A stretch of DNA of 43,835 nucleotides from Acidimicrobiales bacterium (lineage in GTDB: Bacteria > Actinomycetota > Acidimicrobiia > Acidimicrobiales > RAAP-2), in NCBI GenBank assembly GCA_035602795.1, contig DATNLP010000413.1:1-43835 (forward strand), read 5' to 3'. Position numbers and translations under genes: made by a program. Each line of letters starts with the position of its first letter. Within the stretch, counting starts at the first letter, position 1. The notes beneath the pieces are model-generated. The model was not told the origin of the DNA, did no database searches, and saw nothing but the letters and a program-made list of their open reading frames with translations. Shown here one piece after another: positions 16,452 to 43,835 of the stretch.

Positions 16452-16464
16452 TCGCCGGAAGGTC

Positions 16465-22528: not shown

Positions 22529-22543
22529 GCTGGAACTGACCCC

Positions 22544-26171: not shown

Positions 26172-28405
26172 CAGGCGGGAACCTCACCGCCGAGGAACAC
26201 GGCCCGAGCCAGGTCGTCATTCGCCATGAGGTCGGCGATGGCGCCCTCGAACCGGACCTGTCCCTTTTCGAGGAAGACCGCCCGGTCGGCGATGGCCGCT
26301 GCGACGTTGAGCGACTGCTCCACGATGATCATGGTGACGCCTTCGCTCTTCAGTCGCTCGACAACTGCGATGAGCTCCTGGACGACGACCGGCGCCAGCC
26401 CGAGCGAGAGCTCGTCGATCATGAGCACTTCGGGGTCGTGCAGCAACGCGATGGCGAGCGCGAGCATTTGCTGCTGGCCCCCGGACATGGTGTCGGCTCG
26501 ACGCCCTTTGGCCGCTTTCAAGGCTGGGAAGAGGGAGTACATCCGCTCGATGCGGCGCTCGAGGTCGGCCTGATCGCTCCGGTAGACGAAACCGCCCATC
26601 TCGAGATTCTCCCGAACTGTCATCTCGCCGAAGACGCCGCGGCCACCGGGCAGGAGGTGGATGCCGAGCTTGGCGCGCTGCTCCGGGGTCGAGTAGGTGA
26701 TGGTCCGTCCCTTCAGGCGCACGACCCCGCGGTCCGCCGTGACCAGCCCCGCGGCGACCCGCAGCGCAGTGGACTTGCCCGCCCCGTTGGTGCCGAGCAA
26801 GGCGAGCACCTCGCCTTTCTTGACCTCGAAGCTCACGCCGAAGAGAACCTGGACATGCCCGTAGCTGAAGTCGATGTTGTTCAGCTGAAGGGCCGGGATG
26901 GCGTCGGGGTTGTCCGCCTGCCGCTGGTGCTCCTCCTGCTCTTCCTGGAGCTCGAGGACGATCAGAGAGAGGTCGTTGCGGATGTAGTGCGAGCCCCGGA
27001 TGATCATGATCCCCCCGACGATGGTGGTGGGGATCATCAAGATGAGCACGGCGGCTCGGGGCCCGAAGGCCTGGTCGAGGCCGGCCGACAGGATGGCCCC
27101 GCCCGTGGCTCCGATGAAGAAGAGGTAGATGGAACCCACGGCGCCGGTGATCCCGCGCAAGTGGTACGGGGCGACCGAGGTGAGGACGGGTCCGACCATG
27201 GAGAACGCGCACATGGAGAGCACAGTGGCCAGGACCGAGAAGCAAGCCCACAGCACGGCGTTCGGCATGAAGTACTGGATCGGCACGATCACGGCGACCG
27301 GCAGGATGATCTTGCCGATGAGGGCCAAGGCCTTGGCGGGGTCGAGCCGGTACAGGCGGTCGTAGTAACGCCCCACGAAGGGCAGGGCGACGAGGACGCC
27401 CAGGCTGGCGAACGTCCCAACCAGGCCGCGCCGGAACGCATCGAGCCCGTACTGCTGCTTCAAGAAGAGGTTGCCGAGGACAGGAGCGGTGAAGAGGGCA
27501 AAGCCCATGGCGGTGAACCCAATCAGGACCATGCGGAGGGTGCGGATCCGCATGATGCGCGCCCACGCGGCCTCGAGCGAAGGCGGTATCGGCTTGGTGT
27601 CGTCGATCACCTCACCGAGCACATCGAGCTTCTCGTGCTGGCCTCGGGGAGGTTCCCGAAGACGGAAGGCAATGATGGCGACGACGATGACGGGAAGGCC
27701 GAGGATGTAGAAGGCCCAGCGCCAGCCGTTGGGCCCTCCAACCACGGTGGCGATGGTCCCGACCAGAACCGGACTGAGTGCCGTTGCGACCCCCGTCGCC
27801 ATGCCCATGGCAGAGAAGATCCGGCCCCGGAGGTTGATGGGATAGGTGTCGGCCAGCAGCGTGCCGTTGACCGCGTACGCGGAGGCCTGGGTGACACCCA
27901 CGCCGAAGCGGGCGAGGAAGAAGGTCAGGATGTTCGTGGCCAGCCCCGACAGGAACACCATGACGCCGAAGAACAGGGTGGCGAACCCGATGATGGGCGC
28001 TCGGCGGAAGCGATCAGCCATCCAGCCCATCGGCACGATGCCGATGACCAGGAAGCCTCCCGATATGCCGGCGACGAACACGATCACGCCGGAGCTCACG
28101 TGGAAGGACGCCTGGATGTTCGGGGCGAGGACGCCGAGGCCCGCACTCTGCAAGTTGTCGAGCGTGACGATGAGGGCCAGGATGACGAAGGTGGTGTATC
28201 CCGACTTGCGCAGGCCCTCGCGCAACGTGACGCGCTCTTCGCGCGTTCCCGGCAGGAGATCCTCCGGCAGCAGGATCTCTTCCGGTTTTCTCGTCGACTC
28301 CTGACGCTCCTGGGCAGTGTCGGCCACGAAGCGAGCTAGGTCCGTTGGGCTTCCGCTACCCGACGGTGCGGACGCCACCGAATCGGGATCCAGCGTGGCG
28401 CTCAC
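26171..28405 (-). CDS. Fusion of a 12-TM MFS-type membrane domain with a LivF-like ABC ATPase domain
   Basis: MFS motif A-like GWMADRFRRAPIIG and multiple TM helices, then an acidic linker (LELQEEQEEHQRQ), then LQLNNIDFSYGHVQVL, GTNGAGKST, MSGGQQQMLALA, LMIDELSLGL. The stop overlaps the next gene's ATG (ATGA). The start is uncertain: GTG at 28405 follows GGTGAGGACGAGG, while the ORF maximum of 28666 would overlap the upstream pseudogene. Confidence 0.85.
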   Translation of the reverse strand: MSATLDPDSVASAPSGSGSPTDLARFVADTAQERQESTRKPEEILLPEDLLPGTREERVTLREGLRKSGYTTFVILALIVTLDNLQSAGLGVLAPNIQASFHVSSGVIVFVAGISGGFLVIGIVPMGWMADRFRRAPIIGFATLFFGVMVFLSGLATNILTFFLARFGVGVTQASAYAVNGTLLADTYPINLRGRIFSAMGMATGVATALSPVLVGTIATVVGGPNGWRWAFYILGLPVIVVAIIAFRLREPPRGQHEKLDVLGEVIDDTKPIPPSLEAAWARIMRIRTLRMVLIGFTAMGFALFTAPVLGNLFLKQQYGLDAFRRGLVGTFASLGVLVALPFVGRYYDRLYRLDPAKALALIGKIILPVAVIVPIQYFMPNAVLWACFSVLATVLSMCAFSMVGPVLTSVAPYHLRGITGAVGSIYLFFIGATGGAILSAGLDQAFGPRAAVLILMIPTTIVGGIMIIRGSHYIRNDLSLIVLELQEEQEEHQRQADNPDAIPALQLNNIDFSYGHVQVLFGVSFEVKKGEVLALLGTNGAGKSTALRVAAGLVTADRGVVRLKGRTITYSTPEQRAKLGIHLLPGGRGVFGEMTVRENLEMGGFVYRSDQADLERRIERMYSLFPALKAAKGRRADTMSGGQQQMLALAIALLHDPEVLMIDELSLGLAPVVVQELIAVVERLKSEGVTMIIVEQSLNVAAAIADRAVFLEKGQVRFEGAIADLMANDDLARAVFLGGEVPA

Positions 28406-28550
28406 GCGAGTTCGGACCTCGTCCTCACCGGACCTACCACCCTCCCACTCGGACCTGCACGAGGGGCACTCTACGCCTTTGTTACCGCTAACGGCACGTG
28501 GCTCAACCGAACAAGCGACTGACACGGACGTCAGCCTGAAGGCCCAACAC

Positions 28551-29712
28551 CTACGGGGTGGCCGACTTGGTCGAGAAGACCAGTTGATTGGTGGCGGCGT
28601 CGTACTTGCCGACAAGAACTGGTCCGATCGCGTCGGCCTGTCCGGGTCCGAACGAGACCGGCCCACCCGATCCGGGGAACGTGACGTTCCGGAGCCCGTA
28701 CCCCGCCTTGGTGAAGCTGGCGACGGTCAGGTTCTTCCCGGCCGCCTTGGCGATCGCAGCAAACATGGCGACGTTTTGACACGCGGACTCGGCCGACACA
28801 TAGCTGTGGTCCTGGCTGTTGGACGTCGCGCTGGGGGTGGCGATCTCGTCGGTGGGATACGCCTTTTTGATGATGCTGATGCACTTCTGGACGGCGGGTT
28901 CGCTGAACTCCTGCAGACTCGTGACCGTCCCCGTGGACGTGGTCAGCGTCTTGAGGAACGGTCTTTGCCCGCTGGGTCCGCCAGACAGAGTCCCCAAGAG
29001 AGCCGAAGAGTCCAAGGCGACCCAGGGCGGGTTGTAGGTCGCTTGGGTCTCGGCCAGACCAGCGGGCCAACCCGATGATGCCGAGGCAACCGCGACGACC
29101 TCGATTACCCCGGCACTCTGGAAGCGATTGATGATGATCTGGTCCTGAGCGATGATCGCTGACTGGTCACCGGCCGGAGCCGAATTGACCGCGGATTGGA
29201 CGACGTTCACGTGCAGTTTCTTCAACGTGGCGATGTCCGCGGTGACTTGGCCCTGGTCGGCCGTCACGCCGCCCACGACGACGACCTTCTTCCCCTTGAA
29301 ATCGCCCAGCTTGTTGAAGACCGCAAGCTGGACCGGGTCGTAGGCCGTGGCGGGAGGCGTCAGCGTGAAGTTGGCTGCGCTCGGTCCCCGTGATGGAGCC
29401 TTCGATGGTGGCGTTGGGCGTCGGCGTGTCGTGATTCACGAGATAGCAGTTCGGTTCGTAGGGTGACATGGCCACAAAGATTGAGTCATCCCCCGTCAAC
29501 GTGGTGCAGACCGAGTCCACGCCCACTGTGCCGTGGCCAAGTTCACGGGCTCGAAGTAGGCCACGATCTTTCGACCGTCGATGCCACCGTGGGCGTTCAA
29601 GTCGGCGATGAGGGCGCCGTTGGCATCGGGCCAGCTCCCCTGGGTGAGCTTCGAGCAGCGCGACCATCGTCACGGCCGCGGTCCCGGTGGCGAATCCAAT
29701 CCGCTTCGACAT
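28551..29712 (-). pseudogene. Decayed Liv-type substrate-binding protein gene (at least 3 frameshifts plus loss of the N-terminal beta-strand region)
   Basis: Homology to the 7791..9089 protein is spread over three frames. Signal peptide MSKRIGFATGTAAVTMVALL is in one frame. LTQGSWPDANGALIADLNAHGGIDGRKIVAYFEPVNL is in a second. DSVCTTLTGDDSIFVAMSPYEPNCYLVNHDTP is back in the first. GPSAANFTLTPPATAYDPVQLAVFNKLGDFKGKKVVVVGG... through to the stop is in a third (ORF 28551..29276). One shift lies at a C4/G4 run (29386..29389). Confidence 0.7.
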
Positions 29713-29828
29713 GGTGTGCGCTCCCCTTGGCGGCGGTGTGCCGCTGCGCTGCTGCCCCGCACCGCCCTCCACGGCCGGTCGCTGCCTGTCTCGGAAGTGT
29801 CGAAGTTTGACACATCCCCGCTCTCTCC

Positions 29829-29842
29829 TGCAAAGCTTTGCA
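29829..29842. promoter_or_regulatory. Perfect 14-bp palindrome TGCAAAGCTTTGCA (site 1), candidate LacI-type operator
   Basis: Read directly; it is self-complementary. Lies in the divergent region between the fused-ABC operon and uxaC. Confidence 0.6.
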
Positions 29843-29860
29843 CCGAGGCCAGGCCGGGGG

Positions 29861-29876
29861 TTTTACAACTGTAAAA
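29861..29876. promoter_or_regulatory. Inverted repeat TTTTACA-AC-TGTAAAA
   Basis: 7-bp perfect arms with a 2-bp spacer, located between the two 14-bp palindromes. It overlaps the candidate minus-strand -10 hexamer. Confidence 0.4.
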
Positions 29877-29897
29877 GCGTAAGGCCGCAATTCGCAA
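29868..29897 (-). promoter_or_regulatory. Candidate sigma-70/SigA-like promoter for the minus-strand ABC operon (-35 TTGCGA, 18-nt spacer, -10 TACAGT)
   Basis: The minus strand reads TTGCGA-attgcggccttacgcttt-TACAGT. Identified by eye only, in the most AT-rich part of the region. Confidence 0.3.
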
Positions 29898-29946
29898 TCC
29901 TCAGGTGCAAAATCTGCCAAATTCAGTCCCAATGTGGCGGATCCCG

Positions 29947-31377
29947 GTGAGCTGTGCAAAGCTTTGCAGCACCGTGCACGAAGACCGTCTCTTCCCGTCT
30001 GATCCAGACGTGCGCAGAGTTGCGCGCACCATTTACGAGGGAACACGATTTCTCCCGATCATCAGTCCTCATGGCCACTGCGACCCCTCCGTCCTGGCCG
30101 ATGACGCTGGCTTAGGCGACCCGGCAGCCGAGTTGGTGACCAAGGACCACTATCTCCTCCGGCTCCTCTACAGTCAGGGTACGCCGCTCGAAGCCTTAGG
30201 TGTCGTCGCCCTGGACGACACTCCCACGGAGGTGGACGGCCGCCGCATTTGGCGGCGGCTAGCCGAGAACTACGACCTCTTCCGTGGCACGCCTTCCCGA
30301 TTGTGGCTCGACTACACCCTTTCGGAGGTCCTGGGGGTGACCGAGCCCCTGCGAGCTGAGTCATCAGACGACATCTACGAGCAGATCACGAACCGTCTCG
30401 GCTGGGACGATTATCGCGCTCGCTCGCTGTACGAGCGCTTCGGTATCGAGTTTCTGGCAACGACCGACGGTGCCGCCGCCAATCTCGATGCCCACGCCCG
30501 GATCCGGCAATCCGACTGGCCCGGTCGCGTCGTACCAACCTTCCGCCCGGACGATGTGATCGACGTGGAGCGGGGCGACTTCCGGGACAACCTTCGCCGG
30601 CTGGCCGAGTTGACGGACACCGACACCGCAACCTGGCCCGGCTACCTCGACGCGCTGCGCCTGAGGCGCCGGCAATTCATTGAAGCCGGCGCCACGGCGT
30701 CCGATCACGGGCACCCATCGGCGGCCACCGCTGATCTCCAGCCGTCCGAGAAGGAGCGTCTCTTCACCCGCGTCGCGAAAGACAACGCAGAACCCGGAGA
30801 CGCCGAGTTGTTCCGCGCCCAGATGCTGACCGAAATGGTTGCCATGAGCCTGGACGACGGGCTCGTCATGCAACTCCACGTCGGTTCTTGGCGCGATCAC
30901 AACCCGCTCCTGGCGGCGCGCTTCGGACGTGACATCGGAGCAGACATGCCCAAGCCGGCCGACTTCGTGGCGTCGCTCAAGCCAATGCTCGACCGGTTCG
31001 GAAACGAGCCCGACCTGACGATCGTCATCTACACACTGGACGAAACAACCTACGGGCGTGAGTTGGCACCAATGGCCGGGCACTACCCTGTTCTGCGGCT
31101 CGGCCCGCCGTGGTGGTTCTACGACAGCCCACAGGGCATGCGGCGGTTCTACGACCAGGTCGTGGAAACGGCGGGGTTCTCCAACCTGGTGGGATTCAAT
31201 GACGACGCCCGATCCCTGCTGACGATACCGGCCAGGCACGACGTTGCCCGGAGGATCAATGCCGGCTTCCTGGCCGGGTTGGTCACCGAGCACCGCATGG
31301 ACGAGAGAGACGCGGCGGAAATTGCCTCCGACCTGGCATACGGGCTGGCGCGACGTGCGTTTCGCGTTGCAACGTGA
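29947..31377 (+). CDS. uxaC: Glucuronate isomerase (uronate isomerase)
   Basis: HEDRLFPSDPDVRRVARTIYEGTRFLPIISPHGHCDP is the classic UxaC N-terminus, and the length is about 470 aa. The start is ambiguous: GTG 29947 (with GGCGGA 6 nt upstream), GTG 29974, or ATG 29932. Confidence 0.9.
   Translation: MSCAKLCSTVHEDRLFPSDPDVRRVARTIYEGTRFLPIISPHGHCDPSVLADDAGLGDPAAELVTKDHYLLRLLYSQGTPLEALGVVALDDTPTEVDGRRIWRRLAENYDLFRGTPSRLWLDYTLSEVLGVTEPLRAESSDDIYEQITNRLGWDDYRARSLYERFGIEFLATTDGAAANLDAHARIRQSDWPGRVVPTFRPDDVIDVERGDFRDNLRRLAELTDTDTATWPGYLDALRLRRRQFIEAGATASDHGHPSAATADLQPSEKERLFTRVAKDNAEPGDAELFRAQMLTEMVAMSLDDGLVMQLHVGSWRDHNPLLAARFGRDIGADMPKPADFVASLKPMLDRFGNEPDLTIVIYTLDETTYGRELAPMAGHYPVLRLGPPWWFYDSPQGMRRFYDQVVETAGFSNLVGFNDDARSLLTIPARHDVARRINAGFLAGLVTEHRMDERDAAEIASDLAYGLARRAFRVAT
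29955..29968. promoter_or_regulatory. Perfect 14-bp palindrome TGCAAAGCTTTGCA (site 2), candidate LacI-type operator
   Basis: Identical to site 1, with centres exactly 126 bp apart. It overlaps or abuts the uxaC translation start (candidates 29947 and 29974). Confidence 0.6.
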
Positions 31378-31898
31378 CGGCGGTCGTCCTCGTGGGCCTC
31401 ATGGGAGCGGGAAAGTCCTCCGTCGGCTCGGTGGTCGCGGCCCGCATGGGCGTGACGTTCGTCGATGTCGATGTCGCCATTGTCGGAGGGACCGGAAAGA
31501 CAGTGCGCGAGCTCTGGGAGCAAGGCGGTGAGCCGGCTTACCGATACCTGGAGTCGAAAGTCGTGCTCGACACGTTGGCCGAAGAGCGGGACGTGGTCCT
31601 GGCGGCGCCCGGCGGCGTCGTCCTCGACCCGGCGGTGCGGGCCGCCCTGGCCGATGCCTTTGTGGTCTGGCTCCGCACCGATCCGGCAACCCTCGCGAGT
31701 CGTGTGCGACTCGACGACCATCGTCCGTTGTTGGGCGCGCACCCCCGGGACGTGCTCACCACCATGGAACATGAGCGTTCCGGGGTTTACGAAGGACTTG
31801 CCGATCTCGTGATCGACACCGATCACGAAGATGTCGAGACGATCGCCGGCCGCATCGTCAGAGCGCTCGACGACCGGACATCGCCCGGCCGACCGTAG
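31374..31898 (+). CDS. Shikimate-kinase-family (AroK-like) P-loop kinase, paralogue embedded in the uronate operon
   Basis: VLVGLMGAGKSSVG (P-loop), FVDVDVAI..TGKTV.ELW...GEPAYRYLE, VLAAPGGVV (AroK has TGGG), HRPLL. 174 aa. GTGA overlap with the uxaC stop. Confidence 0.85.
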   Translation: MTAVVLVGLMGAGKSSVGSVVAARMGVTFVDVDVAIVGGTGKTVRELWEQGGEPAYRYLESKVVLDTLAEERDVVLAAPGGVVLDPAVRAALADAFVVWLRTDPATLASRVRLDDHRPLLGAHPRDVLTTMEHERSGVYEGLADLVIDTDHEDVETIAGRIVRALDDRTSPGRP

Positions 31899-31918
31899 AC
31901 AGGCAAAAGGGGAGAATC

Positions 31919-33703
31919 ATGCTCCGACCTCAGGATAACGCGAGACGAGAAGCACGACGCCTCGACGGCCTCTGGGATTTCGCGGTGGACACCCAGGGCG
32001 TAGGCCGCGATAAGGGTTGGTGGCGGGGGCCATTGGCCAATGCGACCCCCATGCCCGTTCCCAGTAGTTACAACGACATTCTCGTCGACCCGGCCGTCCA
32101 CGAACACGTGGGTGACGTCTGGTACCAGCGCACCGTCTTCGCCCCCCGTGGCTGGGACGGTCAACGGGTCGTCCTCCGGTTCGACGCAGCGACCCACCGA
32201 GCCAGCGTATGGGTCGACGACACGCACGTCGTTTCACACGAGGGTGGCTACACGCCCTTCGAGGCGGACATCACCGACGCCATCGAACCGGGGATCGAGG
32301 CCCGTCTCACCGTTGCAGTCAACAACGAGCTCACGTGGCACTCGATCCCCCCGGGGATCGTCGAAGTGATGCCCGGCGGTCAGCGACGTCAACGCCAGTA
32401 CCACGACTTCTTCAACTATGCCGGGCTCAATCGGGGAGTCTGGCTGTACTCGACCGCGCGCTCGCACATTGCTGACGTGGCCGTCATCACCGACATTGAA
32501 GATGGAATCGGCATCGTCGGATACTCCACAGTCATCGATGAACCGGGAGCCACGACGGTCAAGGTGCAGCTCCTGGACGCAGAGGGCGCCACGGTGGCGG
32601 CGGCGACCGGTGACGAGGGCGAGCTGCAGGTCAGCCCTCCCCACCTCTGGCAACCCCGAAACGCTTATCTCTACGAGTTCCGGGTCGACCTGATGGACGG
32701 AGAGGACCTGATCGATCGCTACGTGCTGCCGGTGGGGATCCGAACCGTGCGGGTCGAGGAATCCCGGTTCCTGATCAACGACGAGCCGTTCTATTTTCGT
32801 GGGTTCGGGATGCACGAAGACCTCAACGTGCGCGGACGTGGGCATGACGATGCATCGACCGTCCACGACTTCGCGCTCTTGCGTTGGCTCGGAGCCAACT
32901 CGTTCCGGACGTCCCACTACCCCTACGCAGAGGAGGTCCTCGACCTGGCCGACCAGCTCGGCATCGTTGTCATCGACGAGACGGCCGCGGTCGGCCTAAA
33001 CCTCGGCGTCGGCGGAGGCCTCTTCCTCGGTGGTTCCAAGACGACGTTCTCCGAGGAGACCATTGGTTCCGCGACCCAGGCCACGCACCGCCGAGCCATC
33101 GAGGAGTTGATCGCTCGCGACAAGAACCACCCGTGCGTCGTGCTCTGGAGCCTGGCCAACGAGCCCGAATCCCACACCGATGAGGCGCGCGTCTACTTCG
33201 AGCCGCTGTTCGATCTGGCCCGGAAGTCCGATCCCACTCGGCCGGTCGGATTCGTCAACATGATGTTCGCCCAGCCTGACGCCTGCAAAGTCAGCGAGCT
33301 GGCCGACGTCGTCATGATCAATCGGTACTACGGGTGGTACGTCGAACCCGGAGACCTGGTCGCCGCGGAGCGCGGCCTCGAGCGCGAGCTGTTGGCCTGG
33401 GTTGACCGCCACGGCAAGCCGATCATCGTCACCGAATACGGCGCCGACGCGATGCCGGGACTGCACACACTCGATGCAGTTGTTTGGAGCGAGGAATATC
33501 AAGCGGCTCTTCTCGACACGTATCACCGTGTTTTCGACCGCATCGACGGCGTGGTCGGGGAGCAGGTCTGGAATTTTGCCGACTTCGCCACCCCGCCGTC
33601 GTTCATGCGAGTCGACGGCAACAAGAAGGGCGTGTTTACCCGCGACCGCCACCCGAAGGCGGCCGCGCACCATTTGCGCCGGCGCTGGCTCGCCTCTTCG
33701 TGA
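31919..33703 (+). CDS. uidA: Beta-glucuronidase (GH2)
   Basis: MLRPQDNARREARRLDGLWDF...VVLRFDAATHRASVWVDD...HEGGYTPFEADIT closely parallels E. coli GUS. Acid/base WSLANEPES and nucleophile IVTEYGAD motifs are present. Confidence 0.93.
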   Translation: MLRPQDNARREARRLDGLWDFAVDTQGVGRDKGWWRGPLANATPMPVPSSYNDILVDPAVHEHVGDVWYQRTVFAPRGWDGQRVVLRFDAATHRASVWVDDTHVVSHEGGYTPFEADITDAIEPGIEARLTVAVNNELTWHSIPPGIVEVMPGGQRRQRQYHDFFNYAGLNRGVWLYSTARSHIADVAVITDIEDGIGIVGYSTVIDEPGATTVKVQLLDAEGATVAAATGDEGELQVSPPHLWQPRNAYLYEFRVDLMDGEDLIDRYVLPVGIRTVRVEESRFLINDEPFYFRGFGMHEDLNVRGRGHDDASTVHDFALLRWLGANSFRTSHYPYAEEVLDLADQLGIVVIDETAAVGLNLGVGGGLFLGGSKTTFSEETIGSATQATHRRAIEELIARDKNHPCVVLWSLANEPESHTDEARVYFEPLFDLARKSDPTRPVGFVNMMFAQPDACKVSELADVVMINRYYGWYVEPGDLVAAERGLERELLAWVDRHGKPIIVTEYGADAMPGLHTLDAVVWSEEYQAALLDTYHRVFDRIDGVVGEQVWNFADFATPPSFMRVDGNKKGVFTRDRHPKAAAHHLRRRWLASS

Positions 33704-34700
33704 CCTTGCCAGTGGATTCCCGGGGGACGAACGTGCCGAACAGCTCGGTGGTCGGGGTCCCCTCACCCTGGAACAGCTCCACAGCGGCTACGCCGGCCTC
33801 GTCGGTCGGCAGACGAATAGTGGTCAAGGGCGGTGCGACCATGGCCGCCATGGGCACGTCATCGAACCCGATCACACTGATGTCGCCCGGGACCGAGACA
33901 CCAAGACGAGCGAGGCCGGCAATGACCCCCAGCGCCATCTGGTCGTTGAACGCCATGAGAGCCGTGGTGCCGCTGTCCAGGACTCGCGGCACGGCGTCGA
34001 ACGCCGCCTCGAAGGTCGGGGCCGGCGTGTCGATCATCCGGACCTGCATGCCGACCGGGCCACTGGTCTTGCGCACCGCTGCACGGCGTTCGCCAGCGGC
34101 CCACGAGCTGGTCGGCCCCCCCAAGAAGACCAGGTCCCGGTGCCCGAGGGTGGCGAGATGGATGAGCGCCTCGTGAACGGCCGGCGCACTCCGCAACAAC
34201 ACCGAGGCGTGACCGCGAACGGGACGCTGCACGAACACCGCCGGCATGGAGCCGAGGGCCTCAAGTTCGCGGTGGAGGCGCCTCGGGGACATGACGACGA
34301 ACCCGTCGACGTCGTGGGCCAGGGCTCGGGCAACCTTGACCTCTTCCCTCGGGTGCTCGCCGGTGTCCGCGAGAAGTACCTGCAACTCGGACTCGCGGGC
34401 GGTGCGCTCGACAGCACGAACCATGGAGCCGAAGTAGGGATTTGTGATGTCCGGAACGATCACGGCGATGTTGCCCGTGCGCCCGGTCTTCATCACCCGT
34501 GCCGCACGGTTCGGTACAAATCCGAGCTGCTCCACCGCGCGTTCGACCCGCACGCGCGTCGCCGGGGCGACCTTCTCCGGTCGGGTCAGCGCACGAGACA
34601 CGGTTGCCGGGTGCACCTTGGCGCGAGCGGCCACGTCGAGGATCGTGACGCGTCTCGGAGTCCCCACAGGCACCGACGTTACACGCCGGACCACGAGCAT
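33636..34700 (-). CDS. LacI family transcriptional regulator
   Basis: VTILDVAARAKVHPATVSRALTRPEKVAPATRVRVERAVEQLGFVPNRAAR (HTH) followed by a PBP-like effector domain. The 3' end overlaps the uidA 3' end convergently (33636..33703). Alternative GTG starts lie at 34673 and 34667. Confidence 0.88.
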   Translation of the reverse strand: MLVVRRVTSVPVGTPRRVTILDVAARAKVHPATVSRALTRPEKVAPATRVRVERAVEQLGFVPNRAARVMKTGRTGNIAVIVPDITNPYFGSMVRAVERTARESELQVLLADTGEHPREEVKVARALAHDVDGFVVMSPRRLHRELEALGSMPAVFVQRPVRGHASVLLRSAPAVHEALIHLATLGHRDLVFLGGPTSSWAAGERRAAVRKTSGPVGMQVRMIDTPAPTFEAAFDAVPRVLDSGTTALMAFNDQMALGVIAGLARLGVSVPGDISVIGFDDVPMAAMVAPPLTTIRLPTDEAGVAAVELFQGEGTPTTELFGTFVPRESTGKVTKRRASAGANGARPPSGGGRG

Positions 34701-34705
34701 CGATC

Positions 34706-36106
34706 ATGACTGCGACGACGGAAACGCAAGCGCGGCTCTCTGCCCGAACGCTTGGCTTCGCACGCGCCCCGTCAGTGCCCACGTACGACAGAACGATATC
34801 GGCGAGCATCGCCCACGTCGGGCTCGGCGCCTTCGTCAGGGCTCACCTCGCCGTCTACGCCGATGATCTGTCTCGGCTGGGCCGCTCGGCGCTGATTCGC
34901 GCCACGTCACTGCACAGCCACGCCGTAGCCGATCAGTTGACGCCACAAGATTGTCTCTACGCCGTGGCCGAGCGCGAACCGGGAGCCGACCCCCCACCCC
35001 GCGTCATCGGATCGATCACGTCCGCTTCGACCGGCCCCGCCGCGGCCCTCGATGCACTAGGAGCGCCGAGCACGCGCCTGGTGACGCTGACCATTACGGA
35101 AAAGGGATACGACCTCACCGAGGAGGATCTGGAACGTCCGGAGCACTCGCCCTCTGCCCTGGCGGTGGTGACGCGTGCGTTAGCCCGGTGCTGCGACTCT
35201 GGGCAGATGCCACCAATGATCGCCTCCCTCGACAACGTCATGGACAATGGGGTCCTTCTCCGATCCCGCGTCTCCGAGATCGCAGAGCGCCTCAACCCTT
35301 CGCTCCCTCGATGGATCGAGGAGGCGGTTCGGTTTCCGAGTTCGGTCGTCGATCGGATGGTACCGGCGACGACCGAACAGGACATTGAGGACGTCAGCGA
35401 TCAGCTCGGCCTCGTTGACCTCGGCGCCGTGACGACCGAGCGGCATCGCTCATGGGTGATGACGGAGGAAGCGCCGTTGCTTCCACTCTCCGAGGTCGGC
35501 GTCGACATCGTCGAGGACATCGTCCCCTTCGAGCAACGGAAGCTCTGGTTGCTGAACGGACCGCACTCCGCCTTGGCCTACTGCGGGATTTTGGCTGGCT
35601 GCACCACGATTGCGGAGGCGTCCAATCATCCGATCGTGTCGGTGTTCGTTCGGAGGCTTGTGGATGACGTTCTCGAAGTGGTCGACTTACCCGTGAGGCT
35701 TCAGCCGAAGGACTTTGCTATGGAAGCCTTGGAGCGCTTCGGGAACCCCAGCCTCGGGCACACGTGCGCGAAGGTCGGAGCCGACGGGTCCCGAAAGCTA
35801 CCGCAGCGGTTCGGGTCGATCGTGGTCGCCCGCAGGCAGGCGGGGCTCGAAACCACGAGCTTCGCAACGGTTGCCGCACTGTGGGTCGCGTTGGCCAGCG
35901 GCCTCGCCATCGGCGGCTCGAACATGGCGGGCGTGGAGGATCCGGCGAGCCCGCGGTTGCGGTCGGCCGCGGTCCGCCATGACCTTGGACAGCTGGTGCA
36001 CCTGGCGCTCAATGACGGGTTCGAGGGCGACTTCGTGGCGCTCGTGGTCGACACCCTGGCTCGTCTCCTCCAAGAAGGAATGGGGCTCCTACAGGTGAGT
36101 CCGTGA
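34706..36106 (+). CDS. Mannitol dehydrogenase family oxidoreductase (fructuronate reductase / mannonate oxidoreductase-like)
   Basis: PTYDRTISASIAHVGLGAFVRAHLAVY N-terminal Rossmann motif and LLNGPHSALAY are typical of the long-chain mannitol dehydrogenase (UxuB/UxaB/MtlK) family. Substrate is inferred from uxaC/uidA context only. Confidence 0.85.
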   Translation: MTATTETQARLSARTLGFARAPSVPTYDRTISASIAHVGLGAFVRAHLAVYADDLSRLGRSALIRATSLHSHAVADQLTPQDCLYAVAEREPGADPPPRVIGSITSASTGPAAALDALGAPSTRLVTLTITEKGYDLTEEDLERPEHSPSALAVVTRALARCCDSGQMPPMIASLDNVMDNGVLLRSRVSEIAERLNPSLPRWIEEAVRFPSSVVDRMVPATTEQDIEDVSDQLGLVDLGAVTTERHRSWVMTEEAPLLPLSEVGVDIVEDIVPFEQRKLWLLNGPHSALAYCGILAGCTTIAEASNHPIVSVFVRRLVDDVLEVVDLPVRLQPKDFAMEALERFGNPSLGHTCAKVGADGSRKLPQRFGSIVVARRQAGLETTSFATVAALWVALASGLAIGGSNMAGVEDPASPRLRSAAVRHDLGQLVHLALNDGFEGDFVALVVDTLARLLQEGMGLLQVSP

Positions 36107-37326
36107 CCGCCACGATCGGGGACCGCCACGGAGTTCTGAGTGCGGAAGAGGTACGCGGATTCATTGAGTCGTGCCAGGCAGCGATCGACCTCGACGGCCG
36201 CTCGCTCTGTCTCGTGATTCCGGATGCCACGAGGACCTGCCCACTTCCATTGCTCCTGTCCGCGGTGGCTGCGTCTGTTGGTGCGCGCGTCCGTTCCTGC
36301 ACTGCCGTCGTGGCGTTGGGGACGCACGCGCCGATGACAAGGGAGGCGATCGCCACCATGGTCGGCGATCCCGAATTCCCCGTGGTGAACCATGAGTGGT
36401 GGGTCCCAGAAACCTTCACCGGTGTGGGTACACTCGGCGCGGACACCGTGTCCGAACTCTCGAATGGAATGCTCCGGGAGGTCGTCGACGTCCGGATAAA
36501 CCGATTGGTCCTGGAGAGTGACGTGACGATCATCATCGGCCCGGTGCTCCCCCACGAGGTGGTCGGGTTCTCCGGTGGAAACAAATACCTCTTTCCCGGG
36601 CTGTCGGGTCAGGAGCTCATCGACGTGACCCACTGGCTCGGCGCTCTCATCACAAGCCGCACGATCATCGGCACCCGCGGCATCACCCCGGTTCGTGCGC
36701 TGATTGATGCGGCAGCTGGTCTGGTACCCGGAGAGCGGCATGCGCTGTGCGCAGTGGTCGATCATGCGACGCGAGGGCTGCACTCCCTCTCGTTCGGCTC
36801 ACCCGAACTGGCCTGGGCGGCGGCGGCGGGCGTCGCGGCGGACACGCATATCGAGTACCTGCCGGCACCGGTCAGCCGAGTGCTGTCGATCGTGCCGCCT
36901 CGGTACGCAGACCTCTGGACCGGTGCCAAGGGCTTCTACAAGGTCGAGCCGGTCGTGGCCGACGGAGGTGAGGTCGTGCTGTTTGCACCGCACATAACCG
37001 AAATTGCGGCCATGCACCCGGACCAGGAGGGAGTGGGCTATCACTCGCGCGATTTCTTCCTGGCCCACTGGGAGGAGTACCAAAGTCATCCCCGAGGCGA
37101 ACTCGCCCATTCCACCCACCTCTACGGAGCCGGGACGTACGACCCGGTGTACGGCGAGCATCAACGCGTGCGCGTCACCCTCGCCACTGGCATCCCAGAA
37201 GAGGTCGTGACGAGGGCGAACCTCAACTACATGGACCCCGCCTCGGTTGACGTGGCTGCGTGGACGGCCGACGCCGGCGCGCTCGTCGTGCCCGACGCCG
37301 GTGAGGTCCTCTTCCGCTTGCGGTAA
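36103..37326 (+). CDS. LarA-like (lactate racemase N-terminal domain / nickel-pincer-nucleotide-dependent racemase-epimerase superfamily) protein
   Basis: VIPDATRTCP (LarA: SSDHTRPVP), VVALGTHAPMT (LarA: ATGFHRPST), LPHEVVGFSGGNKYLFPG (LarA: ESHFFAGFSGGRKSVLPG with the cofactor-tethering Lys), then THW (LarA: ANH). LarA motifs are recalled from the L. plantarum enzyme. GTGA overlap with the reductase stop. Confidence 0.82.
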   Translation: MTATIGDRHGVLSAEEVRGFIESCQAAIDLDGRSLCLVIPDATRTCPLPLLLSAVAASVGARVRSCTAVVALGTHAPMTREAIATMVGDPEFPVVNHEWWVPETFTGVGTLGADTVSELSNGMLREVVDVRINRLVLESDVTIIIGPVLPHEVVGFSGGNKYLFPGLSGQELIDVTHWLGALITSRTIIGTRGITPVRALIDAAAGLVPGERHALCAVVDHATRGLHSLSFGSPELAWAAAAGVAADTHIEYLPAPVSRVLSIVPPRYADLWTGAKGFYKVEPVVADGGEVVLFAPHITEIAAMHPDQEGVGYHSRDFFLAHWEEYQSHPRGELAHSTHLYGAGTYDPVYGEHQRVRVTLATGIPEEVVTRANLNYMDPASVDVAAWTADAGALVVPDAGEVLFRLR

Positions 37327-37341
37327 AGAGCCAGCCCTCCG

Positions 37342-37357
37342 CCGGCCCTGCGGCCGG
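37342..37357. terminator. GC hairpin CCGGCC-ctgc-GGCCGG between convergent genes (weak bidirectional terminator candidate)
   Basis: 6-bp perfect stem with a 4-nt loop in the 37-nt gap between the LarA-like stop and the oxidoreductase stop. There is no U-tract. Confidence 0.25.
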
Positions 37358-37363
37358 TCACCA

Positions 37364-38335
37364 TCACTCCCCTGGAAAGACGAGCCCGATCTGATGCCGG
37401 ATCGAGTCGAGCGTGGTGGCGAGGACGAACGTTTCGTCGAGGGGCATGACCGGACTCTCTGTTTCGCCCGCAGCCAAACAGCGATGAACCTCTTCGATCT
37501 CAAACCGCAGCCCATTGCCTTCGTAGGAACAGTCGACCAGCTCTGATCCGGCGACGGTCGTCACGGTGAAGGCGTTGGGACAGTGCATCAACGCGGGGAT
37601 GTCGATCCATCCTTCGGTGCCCGAGATCCGGCCCGTACAGGTCATGCCCACCCGCAGAGCGGCCTTGACGACTCCGAGTCCGCCGCCGGGATGGCGCAGC
37701 ACTGCCGCAACCTGTTCGTCAACACCGGTCTCCCCGATGACCCCCTCTGCCGCAGCGTGTTGGGGATGACCCAGCACCAGCGAGCAGAGCTGGATCGGAT
37801 AGATGCCCAGGTCGAGCAAACCACCACCACCCAGATCGAGCCGGAACAACCGATCTTCCGGATCCATCGCCCTGCGAAACCCAAAGTCCGCCTCGACCAG
37901 GAGCGGCTCTCCGATTCGCCCGGTCCCGATGACGTCGACCATGGAGCGGTAGCTCGGAAGGAATCGGCTCCAGATGGCCTCCATCAAGAACAAACCCCGA
38001 GAGCGAGCTTCTTCGACCATCTGTCGTGCGTAACCGGCATTGAGCGCAAACGGCTTCTCGCAGAGCACGTGCTTTCCCGCCTGGAGGATGGCCACGGTAT
38101 CGGACGCGTGCCGCGACTGAGGGGTGGCCACATACACCACATCGACGTTTGGATCTTCCCCGAGTGCGGCGTAGCTGTCGTAGCGGGTGGCCACGCCGAA
38201 CCGATCACCGAAGACATCAGCTCTCTCCGCTGAACGTGAAGCCACTGCGACGATCTCGCCGTCGTCGACCAGACGCATTGCGTCAGCGAAGCCGACGGCG
38301 ATTGCACCTGGCCCTATGACTCCCCACCGAACCAT
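37364..38335 (-). CDS. Gfo/Idh/MocA family oxidoreductase (dihydrodiol / D-xylose 1-dehydrogenase-like)
   Basis: MVRWGVIGPGAIA (Rossmann), HVLCEKPFAL (EKP motif), and LMEAIWSRFLP, which resembles the DHDH subfamily. ATG at 38335 is preceded by GGAGGGAG. Confidence 0.88.
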   Translation of the reverse strand: MVRWGVIGPGAIAVGFADAMRLVDDGEIVAVASRSAERADVFGDRFGVATRYDSYAALGEDPNVDVVYVATPQSRHASDTVAILQAGKHVLCEKPFALNAGYARQMVEEARSRGLFLMEAIWSRFLPSYRSMVDVIGTGRIGEPLLVEADFGFRRAMDPEDRLFRLDLGGGGLLDLGIYPIQLCSLVLGHPQHAAAEGVIGETGVDEQVAAVLRHPGGGLGVVKAALRVGMTCTGRISGTEGWIDIPALMHCPNAFTVTTVAGSELVDCSYEGNGLRFEIEEVHRCLAAGETESPVMPLDETFVLATTLDSIRHQIGLVFPGE

Positions 38336-38440
38336 CTCGTCTCCCTCCGTCCCCTCCCCCGTCGGCCCCGTGCGTACTCTCGATGGAAAACCCTGGGAGG
38401 AGGCAGAACCGGCACTCACGGCAACTCTCCCTCGATTCTC

Positions 38441-38454
38441 TGATAACGCTATCA
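38441..38454. promoter_or_regulatory. LacI-family-type operator candidate TGATAACGCTATCA
   Basis: Fits the generic LacI/GalR pattern TGnnAnCGnTnnCA, with TGATA/TATCA arms. Lies 94 nt upstream of xylA and 106 nt upstream of the divergent oxidoreductase. Confidence 0.5.
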
Positions 38455-38547
38455 TTGGGACCGCATACCGGTTCTGGTGACTCCCGGGACCGGCGAACGC
38501 ACGCCTCGGTCGGCTGACCCGACGGGCAGCAGGGAAGGACACCAGAG

Positions 38548-39705
38548 ATGAGCGATTCGTACGTACCCCGTCCCGAGCACCGGTTCACGTTCGGGCTTTG
38601 GACCGTCGGAAACCCCGGGCGTGACCCCTTCGGCAACGTGGTTCGAGCTGAGCTTGACCCCGTCGAGACGGTCTATCGCCTGGCCGAGCTCGGCGCCTAC
38701 GGGATCTCCTTCCACGACAACGACTTGGTGCCGTACGGGGCCTCGGCGTCTGAAGGGCAGACGATCATCAAGCGGTTCCGGCACGCACTCGACGAGACCG
38801 GCATGAAGGTCCCCATGGCGACGACCAACTTGTTCTGGCGCCCGATCTTCAAGGAGGGTGCGTTCACCGCCAACGATCCGGCCATTCGGCGCTTCGCCGT
38901 GAAGAAGACGTGCGAAGCCATGGAGCTCGGCGCTGAGCTGGGGGCCGAGGTCCAGGTCATGTGGGGTGGGCGCGAGGGTGCGGAGGTCGACGCGGCAAAA
39001 GACGTGCGTGCGGCACTGGACCGCTACAAAGAGGCCGTCGACCTCTGCTGCGAACACATCCGAGCCCGCGACCTCGGTCTCCGCATAGCCCTCGAGCCCA
39101 AGCCGAACGAACCGCGGGGCGACATCCTGCTCCCCACCGTCGGCCATGCACTGGCCTTCATCAACGAGCTCGAATGGCCCGAGATGGTGGGACTGAACCC
39201 TGAATTCGCTCACGAAACGATGAGCGGACTCTCCTTCTCACACGCTGTGGCACAGACGCTGTGGCACGGGAAACTGTTCCACATCGACCTCAACGCCCAG
39301 CGAATCGGCAAGTTCGACCAGGACTTCCGGTTCGGTTCCGAGGGTATCCGCGACGCCTTCTACGTCGTGAAACTCCTCGAGGACTCAGGGTGGGACGGCA
39401 TGCGGCATTTCGACGCGCACCCCTACCGCACCGAGGACGCTGACGGCGTCTGGGACTTCGCCCGCGGTTGCATGCGGAGCTATCTGATCCTGGCCGAGAA
39501 GGCTCGGCAATTCCGAGCGGACAGCGAGATTCAAGAAGCGCTGCGCGTCGCCAAAGCCCCACAACTGCACGAGCGGACCGCGCCTGCGGGCGGTCTCGGC
39601 GAGATCCTCTCCTCCGACTACGACGAGGAGACGCTGGCGGCGCAGGGATACGGGCTCGAACGTCTTGACCAGCTGGTGACCGAATTGCTTCTCGGAGCTC
39701 GCTAG
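38548..39705 (+). CDS. xylA: Xylose isomerase (class I, actinobacterial type)
   Basis: [48 protein letters not shown]. About 385 aa. Confidence 0.95.
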
Positions 39706-41123: not shown

Positions 41124-41181
41124 TCCCCTCAAACGGGTCGTACACGAAAGCCTGAAAGTGGATCCACCCCGCCGAGCCGTG

Positions 41182-42168
41182 ATGGCGGATGTCGCCCGAC
41201 GAGCGGGAGTCTCGGTCATGACGGTGTCCCGCGTGCTCAATGGTTACCCGGGAGTTGCCGTCGCCACGCGGCGCCGGGTGGAGAAGGCGATGACGGCCCT
41301 CGACTACCGCGCCAATACCGCAGCACGGGTTCTCGCGGGCGGAAGGTCCAGGACATTGGGCGTCATCGCTGTCGAAAGCGAGCAGTTTGGCCCTTCGCAC
41401 ACACTTTTTGGGATTGAGGCGGCCGCCCGAGACGCAGGCCACAAGGTCACGTTCGTGACGGCGAGCCCAAACGGCGGAGACATGTCGAGCACCCTCGAGC
41501 ACCTCCGGACATCCGATGCGGAAGGAGTGATCGTCGTCGCCCCCGTCCGCCAGGTGGTCGATGCGATAACCGGCGTCGACCCCGGAGTGCCCCTCGTGGT
41601 GGTGGGTGGCGACCCCGAGATGGACGTCGCCACGGTCACCATCGATCAACACGAAGGCGCCCGCCTGGCGACCGAACATCTCCTCGAACTAGGACATACA
41701 ACCGTCCACCACGTGCGCGGACCAAAAGACTGGATCGATGCCGATGCCCGGGCGCGCGGGTGGGCCGACGCCCTCCGCTCCGGCAAGGCAACCCGGCGCC
41801 GCGCGATCGTCGGTGACTGGGGCGCACGAAGCGGCTATGCCGCCGGTGTGCGACTCGCCCGCGAGTCCAGCGTCACGGCGGTCTTCGCGGCCAACGATCA
41901 GATGGCGCTCGGCGTCATCCGCGCCCTTCACGATGAAGGTCGCCGGGTGCCCGCTGATGTGAGCGTCGTCGGCTTCGACGATACGCCCGAATCCGCCTAC
42001 TTCCTCCCGGCCCTGACGACCATTCGCCAGAATCTTGGTGAGGTCGGCCGGCGCAGCGTGCAGCTCATCTTTTCGATGATCGACGACTCCGTCGCCGAGC
42101 GGCACGTCGTCGTGTCCGCCGGGCTGGTCGAACGCGAGAGCACGACTTCGCCGGCCTCGCACCACTGA
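41182..42168 (+). CDS. LacI family transcriptional regulator (probable xylose-locus regulator)
   Basis: MADVARRAGVSVMTVSRVLNGYPGVAVATRRRVEKAMTALDYRANTAAR, then an effector domain (VFAANDQMALGVIRAL, SVVGFDD). The 5' part of ORF 40591..42168 lies in an alternative frame within xylB and was trimmed. Confidence 0.88.
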   Translation: MADVARRAGVSVMTVSRVLNGYPGVAVATRRRVEKAMTALDYRANTAARVLAGGRSRTLGVIAVESEQFGPSHTLFGIEAAARDAGHKVTFVTASPNGGDMSSTLEHLRTSDAEGVIVVAPVRQVVDAITGVDPGVPLVVVGGDPEMDVATVTIDQHEGARLATEHLLELGHTTVHHVRGPKDWIDADARARGWADALRSGKATRRRAIVGDWGARSGYAAGVRLARESSVTAVFAANDQMALGVIRALHDEGRRVPADVSVVGFDDTPESAYFLPALTTIRQNLGEVGRRSVQLIFSMIDDSVAERHVVVSAGLVERESTTSPASHH

Positions 42169-42188
42169 GTCCATCTGACGGCGACCCC

Positions 42189-43830: not shown

Positions 43831-43835
43831 GGCGG

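Follow-up and report, generated by a model that had tools for sequence, protein, structure and literature searches.

We lean towards reading six genes in the window, by which we mean the whole 43,835-nucleotide stretch of DNA that was analyzed, as a LacI-controlled glucuronide utilization cluster in which a GntE-type bypass replaces the KDG branch of the Ashwell pathway. If this is true, glucuronides would reach 6-phosphogluconate by way of a nickel-dependent epimerase, with no textbook dehydratase route. The initial annotation had put forward a possible mannonate-to-gluconate bypass; homology and comparative genomics back its LarA-family C2 epimerase, but the idea had already been published. 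The route itself is not new, as the GntE/GntK link leading from mannonate through gluconate to 6-phosphogluconate was proposed for T. maritima (Rodionova 2012, as cited in PMC6978723 and PMC7583248) and the activity was reported by Desguin 2020. What is new here is a previously undescribed small shikimate-kinase-like kinase that is built into the cluster.

The genes for UxaC, a 174-aa P-loop kinase, UidA, a LacI regulator, a mannitol-dehydrogenase-family reductase and a LarA homolog all lie within positions 29,829-37,326. The source organism is a soil actinobacterium of an uncultured Acidimicrobiia lineage. The features, with the adjoining transporter genes, are as follows.

23289-29733, minus strand: Liv-type ABC transporter operon (Pfam domains), divergent from uxaC, made up of permease-ATPase (23289-26171) and MFS-ATPase (26171-28666) fusion genes and a substrate-binding protein gene that is disrupted (28551-29733)
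29829-29842: distal copy of the operator-like 14-bp perfect palindrome TGCAAAGCTTTGCA, which has two exact copies in the window
29955-29968: second copy of the palindrome, directly 5' of the probable uxaC start, GTG 29974
29974-31377, plus strand: uxaC, glucuronate isomerase; the ORF reaches back to 29905
31374-31898, plus strand: SKI-family kinase, 174 aa (Pfam SKI; Walker A GLMGAGKS)
31919-33703, plus strand: uidA, GH2 beta-glucuronidase (NCBIfam NF007538)
33636-34700, minus strand: LacI-family transcriptional regulator (Pfam LacI, Peripla_BP_1, Peripla_BP_3)
34706-36106, plus strand: long-chain mannitol-dehydrogenase-family reductase (Pfam Mannitol_dh, Mannitol_dh_C)
36103-37326, plus strand: LarA homolog of group 19 (Pfam Lar_N; nearest structure 4NAR)

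Family scans recovered every gene named in the initial annotation at its coordinates, and both translational couplings it had described can be read in the sequence as GTGA stop/start overlaps, one joining uxaC to the kinase gene (31374-31377) and the other joining the reductase gene to that of the LarA homolog (36103-36106). The start of uxaC needs revision from 29947 to the more probable GTG at 29974, because the NCBIfam alignment begins there (ORF residue 23) and the conserved operator palindrome occupies 29955-29968. This 14-mer is found again in 40 related loci, there too at the uxaC 5' end, and is probably the site bound by the LacI-family regulator of the cluster, whose gene converges on uidA, overlapping it by 68 bp, and diverges from the reductase gene, a position that is kept in relatives.

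The entry enzymes were assigned at equivalog level, with 492 bits against NF002794 for UxaC (cutoff 387; Pfam UxaC E=2.2e-67) and 873 bits against NF007538 for UidA (cutoff 544), and a ribosome-binding site, AAGGGGAG, precedes the uidA ATG. The Liv-type operon is possibly an uptake system associated with the cluster: its trio of genes adjoins uxaC also in L003-L006, L008, L010, L013, L014 and other loci, and in the window the substrate-binding protein gene contains in-frame stops.

The reductase carries both domains of its Pfam family and is UxuB-like, probably a fructuronate reductase that would convert D-fructuronate to D-mannonate. Its top NCBIfam match is the fructuronate reductase model NF011611 at 191 bits, compared with 114 bits for the UxaB model, and the closest solved structure is E. 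coli YdfI (4IM7, 4e-51). The low identity to E. coli UxuB (32% over the full length) and a score far under the NF011611 cutoff of 603 count against the bypass.

The LarA homolog is probably a GntE1-type C2 epimerase that depends on the nickel-pincer nucleotide (NPN) and is predicted to convert D-mannonate to D-gluconate. It matches Pfam Lar_N at 78 bits (cutoff 23), and its structural matches are led by T. maritima GntE2 (4NAR, 3.7e-48), followed by 9EID (1e-8) and 5HUQ (1e-6), with LarA itself matching only at 1e-6. Identity to three group-19 sequences reaches 54% (MODMU_3050), 48% (GntE1 of Corynebacterium glutamicum) and 44%, compared with 29% both to GntE2, a member of group 20, and to a group-18 sequence. 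The initial annotation had called for phylogenetic placement and had pointed to a branch of the superfamily reported to epimerize gluconate and mannonate; in a neighbor-joining tree the protein nests inside LarAH group 19 together with GntE1, for which epimerization of D-mannonate to D-gluconate has been assayed in vitro (Desguin 2020, PMC7583248). Group 19 has no NCBIfam model of its own, the nearest being that of group 18 (NF052594, 145 bits, under the cutoff of 500).

The lactate racemase motifs listed in the initial annotation are all present, D41-A-T-R44, G73-T-H75, H151-EVV-GFSGG-N-K161 and H177, together with K276, and are invariant in 12 homologs. Among them, NPN-binding R44, K161 and H177 (LarA R75, K184 and H200) align with GntE2 R41, K164 and H180, and the catalytic residues D41, H75, H151 and K276 correspond to LarA D72, H108, H174 and K298. 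The published specificity signature of GntE enzymes consists of E-V after the catalytic His, a Trp in helix alpha-11 and A/H in helix alpha-14 (Desguin 2020; JBC 2024), and the window protein has its counterparts in H151-E152-V153, W272-T-G-A-K276 and A335-H336-S-T-H339. The last signature position (AHSTH-x-R) is Tyr341 in the window instead of Arg or Lys, which counts against the bypass; the equivalent residue is Tyr or Phe in each of the 48 own-clade loci that could be read, Arg in 21 of 23 sister-clade loci, and, among published references, Arg in GntE1, MODMU_3050 and GntE2 and Lys in Trad_0660. A further point against the bypass is the KM of GntE1 for D-mannonate, 120 mM, which led its authors to doubt that mannonate is the native substrate (PMC7583248).

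The gene neighborhood was compared over 10 kb around the LarAH gene in 80 species-level loci, 54 from the window's clade and 26 from a sister clade. Within this distance we found the reductase in 73 loci, UxaC in 64 and UidA in 40. The reductase adjoins LarAH in those 73, so the uxuB/larA-like pair, which the initial annotation had proposed to check in other genomes, is kept in most of these species. Complete genomes with the cluster include OY970164.1, OY970336.1 and OY970387.1. UxuA, UxaA, KdgK, Eda and Edd were found in 0/80 loci within 10 kb, and no dehydratase or aldolase is among the recurrent neighbor families of the 80 related loci. The window itself also agrees with the gene absences first described for it: Pfam scans of about 36 ORFs found none of UxuA, UxaA, KdgK, KDPG aldolase or LarB/C/E, and tblastn searches of the window gave no match with E. 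coli UxuA, UxaA, KdgK, Eda and Edd or with LarB/C/E from a relative. The larB/C/E genes were detected neither in the 43.8-kb window nor in the 10-kb flanks of any own-clade locus (54/54), which counts against the bypass.

In the sister clade, LarB and LarC adjoin LarAH in 5 of 26 loci and LarE does so in 4, in an arrangement in which an operon of LarE, FGGY kinase, reductase and UxaC faces LarAH, LarB and LarC. All five sister FGGY kinases score higher with gntK_FGGY (299-362 bits) than with XylB (242-273 bits), and two contigs of one MAG (L070 and L073) have a GntK/IdnK gluconokinase in place of the FGGY kinase. That kinases of different families fill this slot suggests that the intermediate being phosphorylated is gluconate or its C2 epimer, and the combination of gluconokinase-like kinases with larBCE in these other actinobacterial operons supports gluconate as the product.

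The kinase of the window belongs to another family. The proposal that the small P-loop kinase phosphorylates gluconate holds up as to its position, coupled to uxaC, but the protein is of the SKI family (Pfam SKI E=1.6e-35) and is not GntK-like. Assignment as a GntK-type gluconokinase was rejected: the protein is shikimate-kinase-like, does not match TIGR01313 (GntK/IdnK type), aligns with E. coli GntK by BLASTP over 30 residues of the P-loop only, and matches the gluconokinase structure 3T61 only at E=0.12. With similarity to GntK ending at the P-loop, a gluconokinase role rests on gene position; we regard the protein as a plausible candidate gluconate or mannonate kinase. The retained AroK polar residues described below and the P-loop-limited likeness to GntK count against the bypass.

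The kinase could instead be a plain shikimate kinase, a redundant AroK paralog, leaving gluconate to a conventional GntK from another part of the genome, an explanation that we consider possible but doubtful. Its top structure matches are both AroK (2e-23 for E. coli 1KAG over residues 4-166, and 6e-21), yet the protein falls under the cutoff of every AroK/AroL NCBIfam equivalog model listed, the best being PRK13946 with 134 bits against 186. Every polar shikimate-binding and catalytic residue is kept (K14, D31, D33, R57, G80, G81, R117 and R135; for reference, D34, R58, G80, G81 and R136 are the polar residues of the Mtb enzyme), and K14, D33, R57, G80, G81 and R135 are invariant across 113 members of the kinase subfamily. 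The hydrophobic part of the pocket, by contrast, is altered, all members of the subfamily having W48, Y56 and P79 at positions where Mtb AroK has F49, F57 and G79; Phe, Phe and Gly occupy these positions in four AroK structures and in most of the nearest AroK-like representatives, among which these substitutions are rare. Source annotation pipelines name the homologs shikimate kinase, whereas their location speaks for a different role: the subfamily lies directly 3' of uxaC in 28 of 54 own-clade loci (28 of 80 overall), mostly in Acidimicrobiaceae/Microthrixaceae, this coupled position is fixed in the 28 species, and all sampled members of the closest homologs (at least 58% identity) sit in the same cluster and none in an aro operon. 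The gene is missing from 26 of 54 clade loci and survives in L005/L006 as a decayed remnant with a Walker A Lys-to-Arg change and a 46-residue deletion; both observations count against the bypass and would suit a redundant paralog. Where the gene is retained, on the other hand, its rate of change is like that of its neighbors (median identity 60%, compared with 54-73% for the other four cluster genes), which suggests shared selection, and no metabolic connection of shikimate to glucuronides is apparent.

It seems unlikely that the epimerase acts on another sugar acid (an aldarate, D-altronate, or L-gulonate/L-idonate), or that it works in reverse to feed UxuA, KdgK and Eda encoded elsewhere. 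UxaC also handles galacturonate, but UidA fixes glucuronate as the input. The predicted substrate of the reductase depends on a 191-bit match to a model with a cutoff of 603, although the protein is still nearer to UxuB/YdfI than to UxaB (191 versus 114 bits). The change from Arg to Tyr341 may shift specificity, and an aldarate was suggested for GntE1 by Desguin et al. in view of its high KM (PMC7583248); against this, the overlap of the epimerase gene with that of the UxuB-like reductase and its linkage to UxaC, seen in both clades, imply that the reductase product should be what the epimerase acts on. Moreover, the sister operons contain gluconokinase-like genes, a dehydratase occurs in 0/80 loci, and the cluster encodes no obvious enzyme that would take the C2 epimers of altronate or gulonate further. 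Still less probable is a kinase-first order, with the SKI kinase acting on D-mannonate and the LarA homolog then converting 6-phosphomannonate to 6-phosphogluconate: a KM as high as 120 mM for free mannonate hints at some other substrate for GntE1, and the kinase pocket is unlike those of both AroK and GntK, but GntE1 and GntE2 both act on unphosphorylated mannonate (PMC7583248), the Arg-to-Tyr/Phe change in the window's clade loses a positive charge where a phosphate site would call for gaining one, a linked kinase is lacking in half of the clade, and the sister-cluster kinases are most similar to gluconokinases.

In the GntE-type bypass that we favor, UidA would cleave imported glucuronides into aglycone and D-glucuronate, UxaC would isomerize D-glucuronate to D-fructuronate, and the UxuB-like reductase would form D-mannonate from it. 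The group-19 LarA homolog would then invert C2 by a hydride shuttle on the NPN cofactor, giving D-gluconate, which after phosphorylation to 6-phosphogluconate would enter the pentose-phosphate pathway; this direction of flux and the substrates of reductase, epimerase and kinase are predictions. Phosphorylation would most likely fall to the uxaC-coupled SKI kinase, as a shikimate-kinase paralog recruited to a sugar acid, and in clade members lacking it a kinase encoded elsewhere would act.

Compared with the E. coli Ashwell pathway (UxaC-UxuB-UxuA-KdgK-Eda), the cluster shares UxaC, a UxuB-like reductase and UidA as feeder, but has, in the window and the 80 loci, an epimerase in place of dehydratase, KDG kinase and aldolase. 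The T. maritima system with GntE2 (TM0442, 4NAR) follows the same logic of UxaC, UxuB, C2 epimerase, kinase and pentose-phosphate pathway, although GntE2 is only 29% identical and falls in LarAH group 20. The gluconokinase of T. maritima is an FGGY enzyme, and the organism has the classical UxuA/KdgK/KdgA branch as well, whereas the window has an SKI-family kinase and a dehydratase branch is not linked to it. The galacturonate pathway of Lactobacillus suebicus likewise brings hexuronate in as mannonate and yields 6-phosphogluconate in a redox-neutral manner without KDG, but in this Firmicute the kinase acts first, followed by a 6-phosphomannonate 2-epimerase, as found in extracts (Valk et al. 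2020, PMC6978723), and the pathway is not assigned to genes. The kinase shares with AroK (E. coli 1KAG, M. tuberculosis 1L4U) the fold family, Walker A, DxD, R57, GG, R135 and the RPLL lid motif, and differs in its scores under the equivalog cutoffs, in W48, Y56 and P79 for Phe, Phe and Gly, in its location in a uronate cluster instead of an aro operon, and in being dispensable in sister lineages. With regard to C. glutamicum GntE1, the window differs in having Tyr341 for the signature Arg, a clade without larBCE within 10 kb, and uidA and an SKI-family kinase built into the cluster; it derives from an uncultured Acidimicrobiia member, and the activity of its epimerase is predicted. The two epimerases nevertheless belong to the same LarA-superfamily group, with 48% identity and nested placement in the tree, and share the NPN-binding and catalytic residues, the E-V loop, the Trp of helix alpha-11 and the AHSTH motif. 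They also share a type of neighborhood, as the group-19 neighbors listed in Table S1 of PMC7583248 include LacI, UxaC (COG1904), mannitol dehydrogenase (COG0246) and beta-glucuronidase (COG3250).

The uronate cluster lies at 29.8-37.3 kb and contains all the genes named in the initial annotation, together with a LacI-family regulator:

29905-31377, + strand: uxaC open reading frame (NCBIfam equivalog, 492 bits against a cutoff of 387)
31374-31898, + strand: 174-aa kinase of the shikimate-kinase family (SKI kinase)
31919-33703, + strand: uidA (NCBIfam equivalog, 873 bits against a cutoff of 544)
33636-34700, - strand: LacI-family regulator, between uidA and the reductase gene
34706-36106, + strand: mannitol-dehydrogenase-family protein (the reductase)
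36103-37326, + strand: LarA homolog (LarAH)

UxaC and UidA both score above their equivalog cutoffs, and the two GTGA stop/start overlaps that had been described, joining uxaC to the kinase gene and the reductase gene to LarAH, are real. The start of uxaC is most likely the GTG at 29974, which corrects the start assigned previously. The reductase is 32% identical to E. coli UxuB, with YdfI as its nearest structure. As had been claimed, the classical downstream enzymes are missing: Pfam and tblastn searches of the window yielded no UxuA, UxaA, KdgK or Eda, and likewise no Edd, LarB, LarC or LarE. uidA and the LacI gene converge and share 68 bp at their 3' ends (33636-33703), as in relatives, e.g. 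7537-7604 of the related locus L001.

The LarA homolog contains every motif attributed to it (D41-x-T-R44, G-x-H75, H151-xxx-GFSGG-x-K161, H177 and K276). Its top match among solved structures is T. maritima TM0442 (4NAR, E = 3.7e-48), the D-gluconate 2-epimerase GntE2, whereas lactate racemase matches at 1e-6 only. Among the reference sequences in the supplement of Desguin et al. 2020 (PMC7583248), the two group-19 proteins Modestobacter MODMU_3050 and C. glutamicum GntE1 share 54% and 48% identity with the window's protein, and GntE2 (group 20) and a group-18 protein share 29% each. The phylogenetic placement suggested as a check in the initial annotation gave the same answer, with the window's protein falling inside group 19, together with GntE1, in a neighbour-joining tree of 76 relatives and the references.

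More than 8,000 database relatives of this protein exist, the nearest in Acidimicrobiales metagenome-assembled genomes (MAGs). A scan of one genome per species detected relatives in 308 of 185,579 species genomes, and the best 80 loci among them were analyzed with 10-kb flanks. The complete chromosomes OY970164.1, OY970336.1 and OY970387.1 also encode this cluster. Genes in the related loci were called with a GC3 heuristic, and several long-read assemblies have frameshifts. The loci split into two clades. In that of the window (54 loci with identities of at least 65%, mostly Acidimicrobiaceae and Microthrixaceae), the gene order is collinear, with UxaC, SKI kinase where present, UidA, LacI on the opposite strand, reductase and LarAH. 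In the sister clade (26 loci, actinobacterial), the reductase and UxaC genes are transcribed away from the LarAH gene, and there is no uidA; larB and larC lie beside the LarAH gene in five of these loci, four of which also have larE. The two clades differ in the epimerase itself. The published GntE signature is recognizable in the window's protein by an E-V pair following the catalytic His, a Trp in helix alpha-11 and the AHSTH motif, while the signature Arg two residues past AHSTH is replaced by Tyr341. All 48 members of the window's clade that could be read have Tyr or Phe here; Arg occupies the position in 21 of 23 sister-clade members, and GntE2 and the published group-19 sequences have Arg or Lys.

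Searching within 10 kb of the LarAH gene by tblastn located the reductase in 73 of the 80 loci, which answers the suggested check on conservation of the reductase-LarAH pair, as well as UxaC in 64, UidA in 40 and the SKI kinase in 28. E. coli-type UxuA, UxaA, KdgK, Eda, Edd and ExuT were each found in 0/80 loci by the same search, which, relying on E. coli queries, very divergent or non-homologous dehydratases could escape. Pfam scans confined to the recurrent neighbour families returned Amidohydro_2 proteins, glycosidases, transporters and similar functions, and no enolase-type mannonate dehydratase, other hidden dehydratase or aldolase. The strongest evidence here that the group-19 epimerase yields gluconate and that the exit point is 6-phosphogluconate comes from two distinct kinase families in these operons. 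Five sister-clade loci have an FGGY kinase in the reductase-UxaC operon, and all five kinases match the gntK_FGGY gluconokinase model best (299-362 bits, below the equivalog cutoff, versus 242-273 bits for XylB); one further MAG, on its contigs L070 and L073, encodes a gluconokinase of the GntK/IdnK type (149 bits, cutoff 114). Given the near-constant adjacency of the reductase and UxaC, the lack of an adjacent dehydratase in every locus and the presence of two gluconokinase-like families in the operon, we argue that conversion of mannonate to gluconate is the physiological reaction of group-19 LarAH.

The kinase of the window itself is of a different kind. The small P-loop kinase coupled to uxaC is present as described. 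It is not a GntK: BLASTP against E. coli GntK aligned the P-loop only and no gluconokinase model matched. Instead, almost the entire protein (residues 4-166) aligns with AroK of E. coli (2e-23) and M. tuberculosis (6e-21), and K14, D31, D33, R57, G80, G81, R117 and R135 are retained, which correspond to residues that serve catalysis and polar shikimate binding in the M. tuberculosis shikimate-kinase structures. That the protein is nevertheless a plain shikimate kinase appears unlikely to us. Score, context, divergence pace and pocket residues all set it apart from housekeeping AroK. It scores below every NCBIfam AroK cutoff; its best 120 database homologs (at least 58% identity) constitute one subfamily, every sampled member of which lies directly 3' of uxaC in a uronate cluster; and it diverges at the same pace as the neighbouring genes. 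Furthermore, W48, Y56 and P79, at shikimate-contact positions, are invariant across 113 subfamily members; F, F and G stand there in the four AroK structures and in most of the closest representatives of 50%-identity clusters. A change of substrate in this fold has a precedent in the NCBIfam model for a SKI-family homoserine kinase. A sugar-acid kinase, acting on gluconate or, less likely, mannonate, is a reading that we regard as almost evenly poised between true and false. The narrower claim that it represents the first gluconate kinase derived from a shikimate-kinase scaffold is put forward tentatively. A literature search found no paper tying a shikimate-kinase-like gene to uxaC clusters.

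An essential role of the SKI kinase is counted against by its absence from 26 of the 54 loci of the window's clade and by its decay in L005 and L006, loci of a sister lineage with LarAH 87% identical. There, the gene following uxaC (5394-5786) is a 128-aa remnant with a Walker A sequence GAGRSS (K to R) that has lost about 46 residues, including R57 and the PGG motif; in locus L008 (LarAH 86% identical) the gene is lost entirely. A lineage-specific insertion, the view first taken because the kinase is absent in L001 and L002 and decayed in L006, was dropped when tblastn on the 80 loci identified the gene in 28 species, in each case immediately 3' of uxaC. Among more remote proteins, the distant W/Y/P-type relatives P0245, P0252 and P0253 sit on contigs of just 1-2 kb, too short to be informative, where no aro or uronate genes are seen. 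The near relatives P0243, P0244 and P0256 (346-366 aa) contain two SKI-like stretches and look like tandem duplications of a shikimate-kinase-like protein.

Upstream of uxaC, the 14-bp palindrome TGCAAAGCTTTGCA occurs in two exact copies 126 bp apart (29829-29842 and 29955-29968) and recurs unchanged where uxaC begins in 40 related loci of different species. It is likely a LacI-family operator, through which the LacI regulator probably controls the cluster. No copy precedes the reductase-LarAH pair, and a promoter and terminator scan of 29300-37600 revealed nothing above shuffled expectation. The divergent ABC system includes a substrate-binding-protein gene (28551-29733, - strand) disrupted by in-frame stops at ~29,400-29,500, representing either a pseudogene or an assembly error; its ortholog in locus L003 is intact (439 aa). 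Next to it, a single 831-aa open reading frame (26171-28666, - strand) joins an MFS_1 transporter domain to an ABC ATPase domain at the C terminus. This architecture is unusual in a Liv-type ABC operon and is kept as a 744-aa fusion beside uxaC in L003-L006 and other loci. The position upstream of uxaC occupied by ABC transporter genes in the window is taken in about 20 species of its clade by a divergent Amidohydro_2 (PF04909) gene (e.g. L033 229-1482, L091 1120-2322, L093 3213-4415), whose product could serve the pathway as a lactonase-type enzyme.

The window (G+C ~66% overall) comes from a 63.8-kb scaffold (ENA ERZ28654840, scaffold_91). Its remainder encodes Liv-type ABC transporters, TetR regulators, VWA/CbbQ proteins, an AveC-like protein, P450s, short-chain dehydrogenases, xylAB, a second LacI regulator and a GHMP kinase. 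The segment 3' of the cluster (37364-43835) comprises a Gfo/Idh/MocA oxidoreductase, xylA, xylB, the second LacI regulator and a GHMP kinase/inositol-monophosphatase-like gene pair; in relatives, GalT comes next. Synteny of this segment extends to ~20-30 relatives, and the uronate cluster is therefore part of a larger conserved sugar-utilisation island. At 14394-22550, an AveC-like spirocyclase-family protein, two cytochrome P450s, three short-chain dehydrogenases, an Amidohydro_2 protein and a TetR regulator may form a small oxidative catabolic or secondary-metabolite module unrelated to the cluster; P450, short-chain dehydrogenase and TetR genes recur near the cluster in relatives. A 414-aa TetR-family protein (9372-10616) carries two TetR_N DNA-binding domains, indicating a tandem or duplicated TetR.

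From what the genes encode, their placement in families, the conserved residues and the synteny observed, we infer a route, including each substrate and direction of flux. Glucuronides would be imported, possibly via the divergent Liv-type ABC system, which many relatives also have beside uxaC, and hydrolyzed by UidA to D-glucuronate, which UxaC would isomerize to D-fructuronate. The UxuB-like reductase would then produce D-mannonate, the NPN-dependent group-19 LarAH would convert it to D-gluconate, and a kinase would form 6-phosphogluconate. Such a route would be widespread among uncultured soil actinobacteria, mostly Acidimicrobiaceae and Microthrixaceae MAGs. Should gluconate or mannonate prove to be the substrate of the SKI kinase, the shikimate-kinase family would gain a new specificity, the routine aroK annotation of these genes would be wrong, and a compact part would be available for redox-neutral uronate-to-pentose engineering.

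In vitro, both GntE1 and GntE2 use the nickel-pincer cofactor to turn D-mannonate into D-gluconate (PMC7583248). The KM of GntE1, 120 mM, left the native role of this actinobacterial group open, and its authors suspected another substrate (PMC7583248); the comparative data help to settle the physiological role of the group-19 homologs. Table S1 of Desguin et al. 2020 already lists LacI, COG1904 (UxaC), COG0246 and COG3250 as group-19 neighbours (PMC7583248). In L. suebicus, mannonate kinase is followed by 6-phosphomannonate 2-epimerase (Valk et al. 2020, PMC6978723). Were the SKI kinase a D-mannonate 6-kinase and the Tyr/Phe-type LarAH a 6-phosphomannonate 2-epimerase, genes for both orphan L. 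suebicus activities would be supplied and the poor handling of free mannonate by GntE1 explained, yet we consider this improbable, as the gluconokinase-like families in the sister-clade operons point to gluconate. Epimerization of free mannonate, our preferred reading, follows instead the order GntE then GntK, which, as summarised by Valk et al. 2020 (PMC6978723), Rodionova 2012 had proposed from T. maritima gene order; in L. suebicus, by contrast, the kinase acts before the epimerase. The gene content claimed in the initial annotation holds, and its interpretation holds in part: group-19 placement and synteny support the mannonate-to-gluconate bypass, but as a rediscovery rather than a new pathway, since both the GntE proposal and the in vitro activity are published. 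What is new in the window's clade, relative to these systems, is the dedicated kinase derived from shikimate kinase, the change of the epimerase signature from Arg to Tyr/Phe and the fused uidA module.
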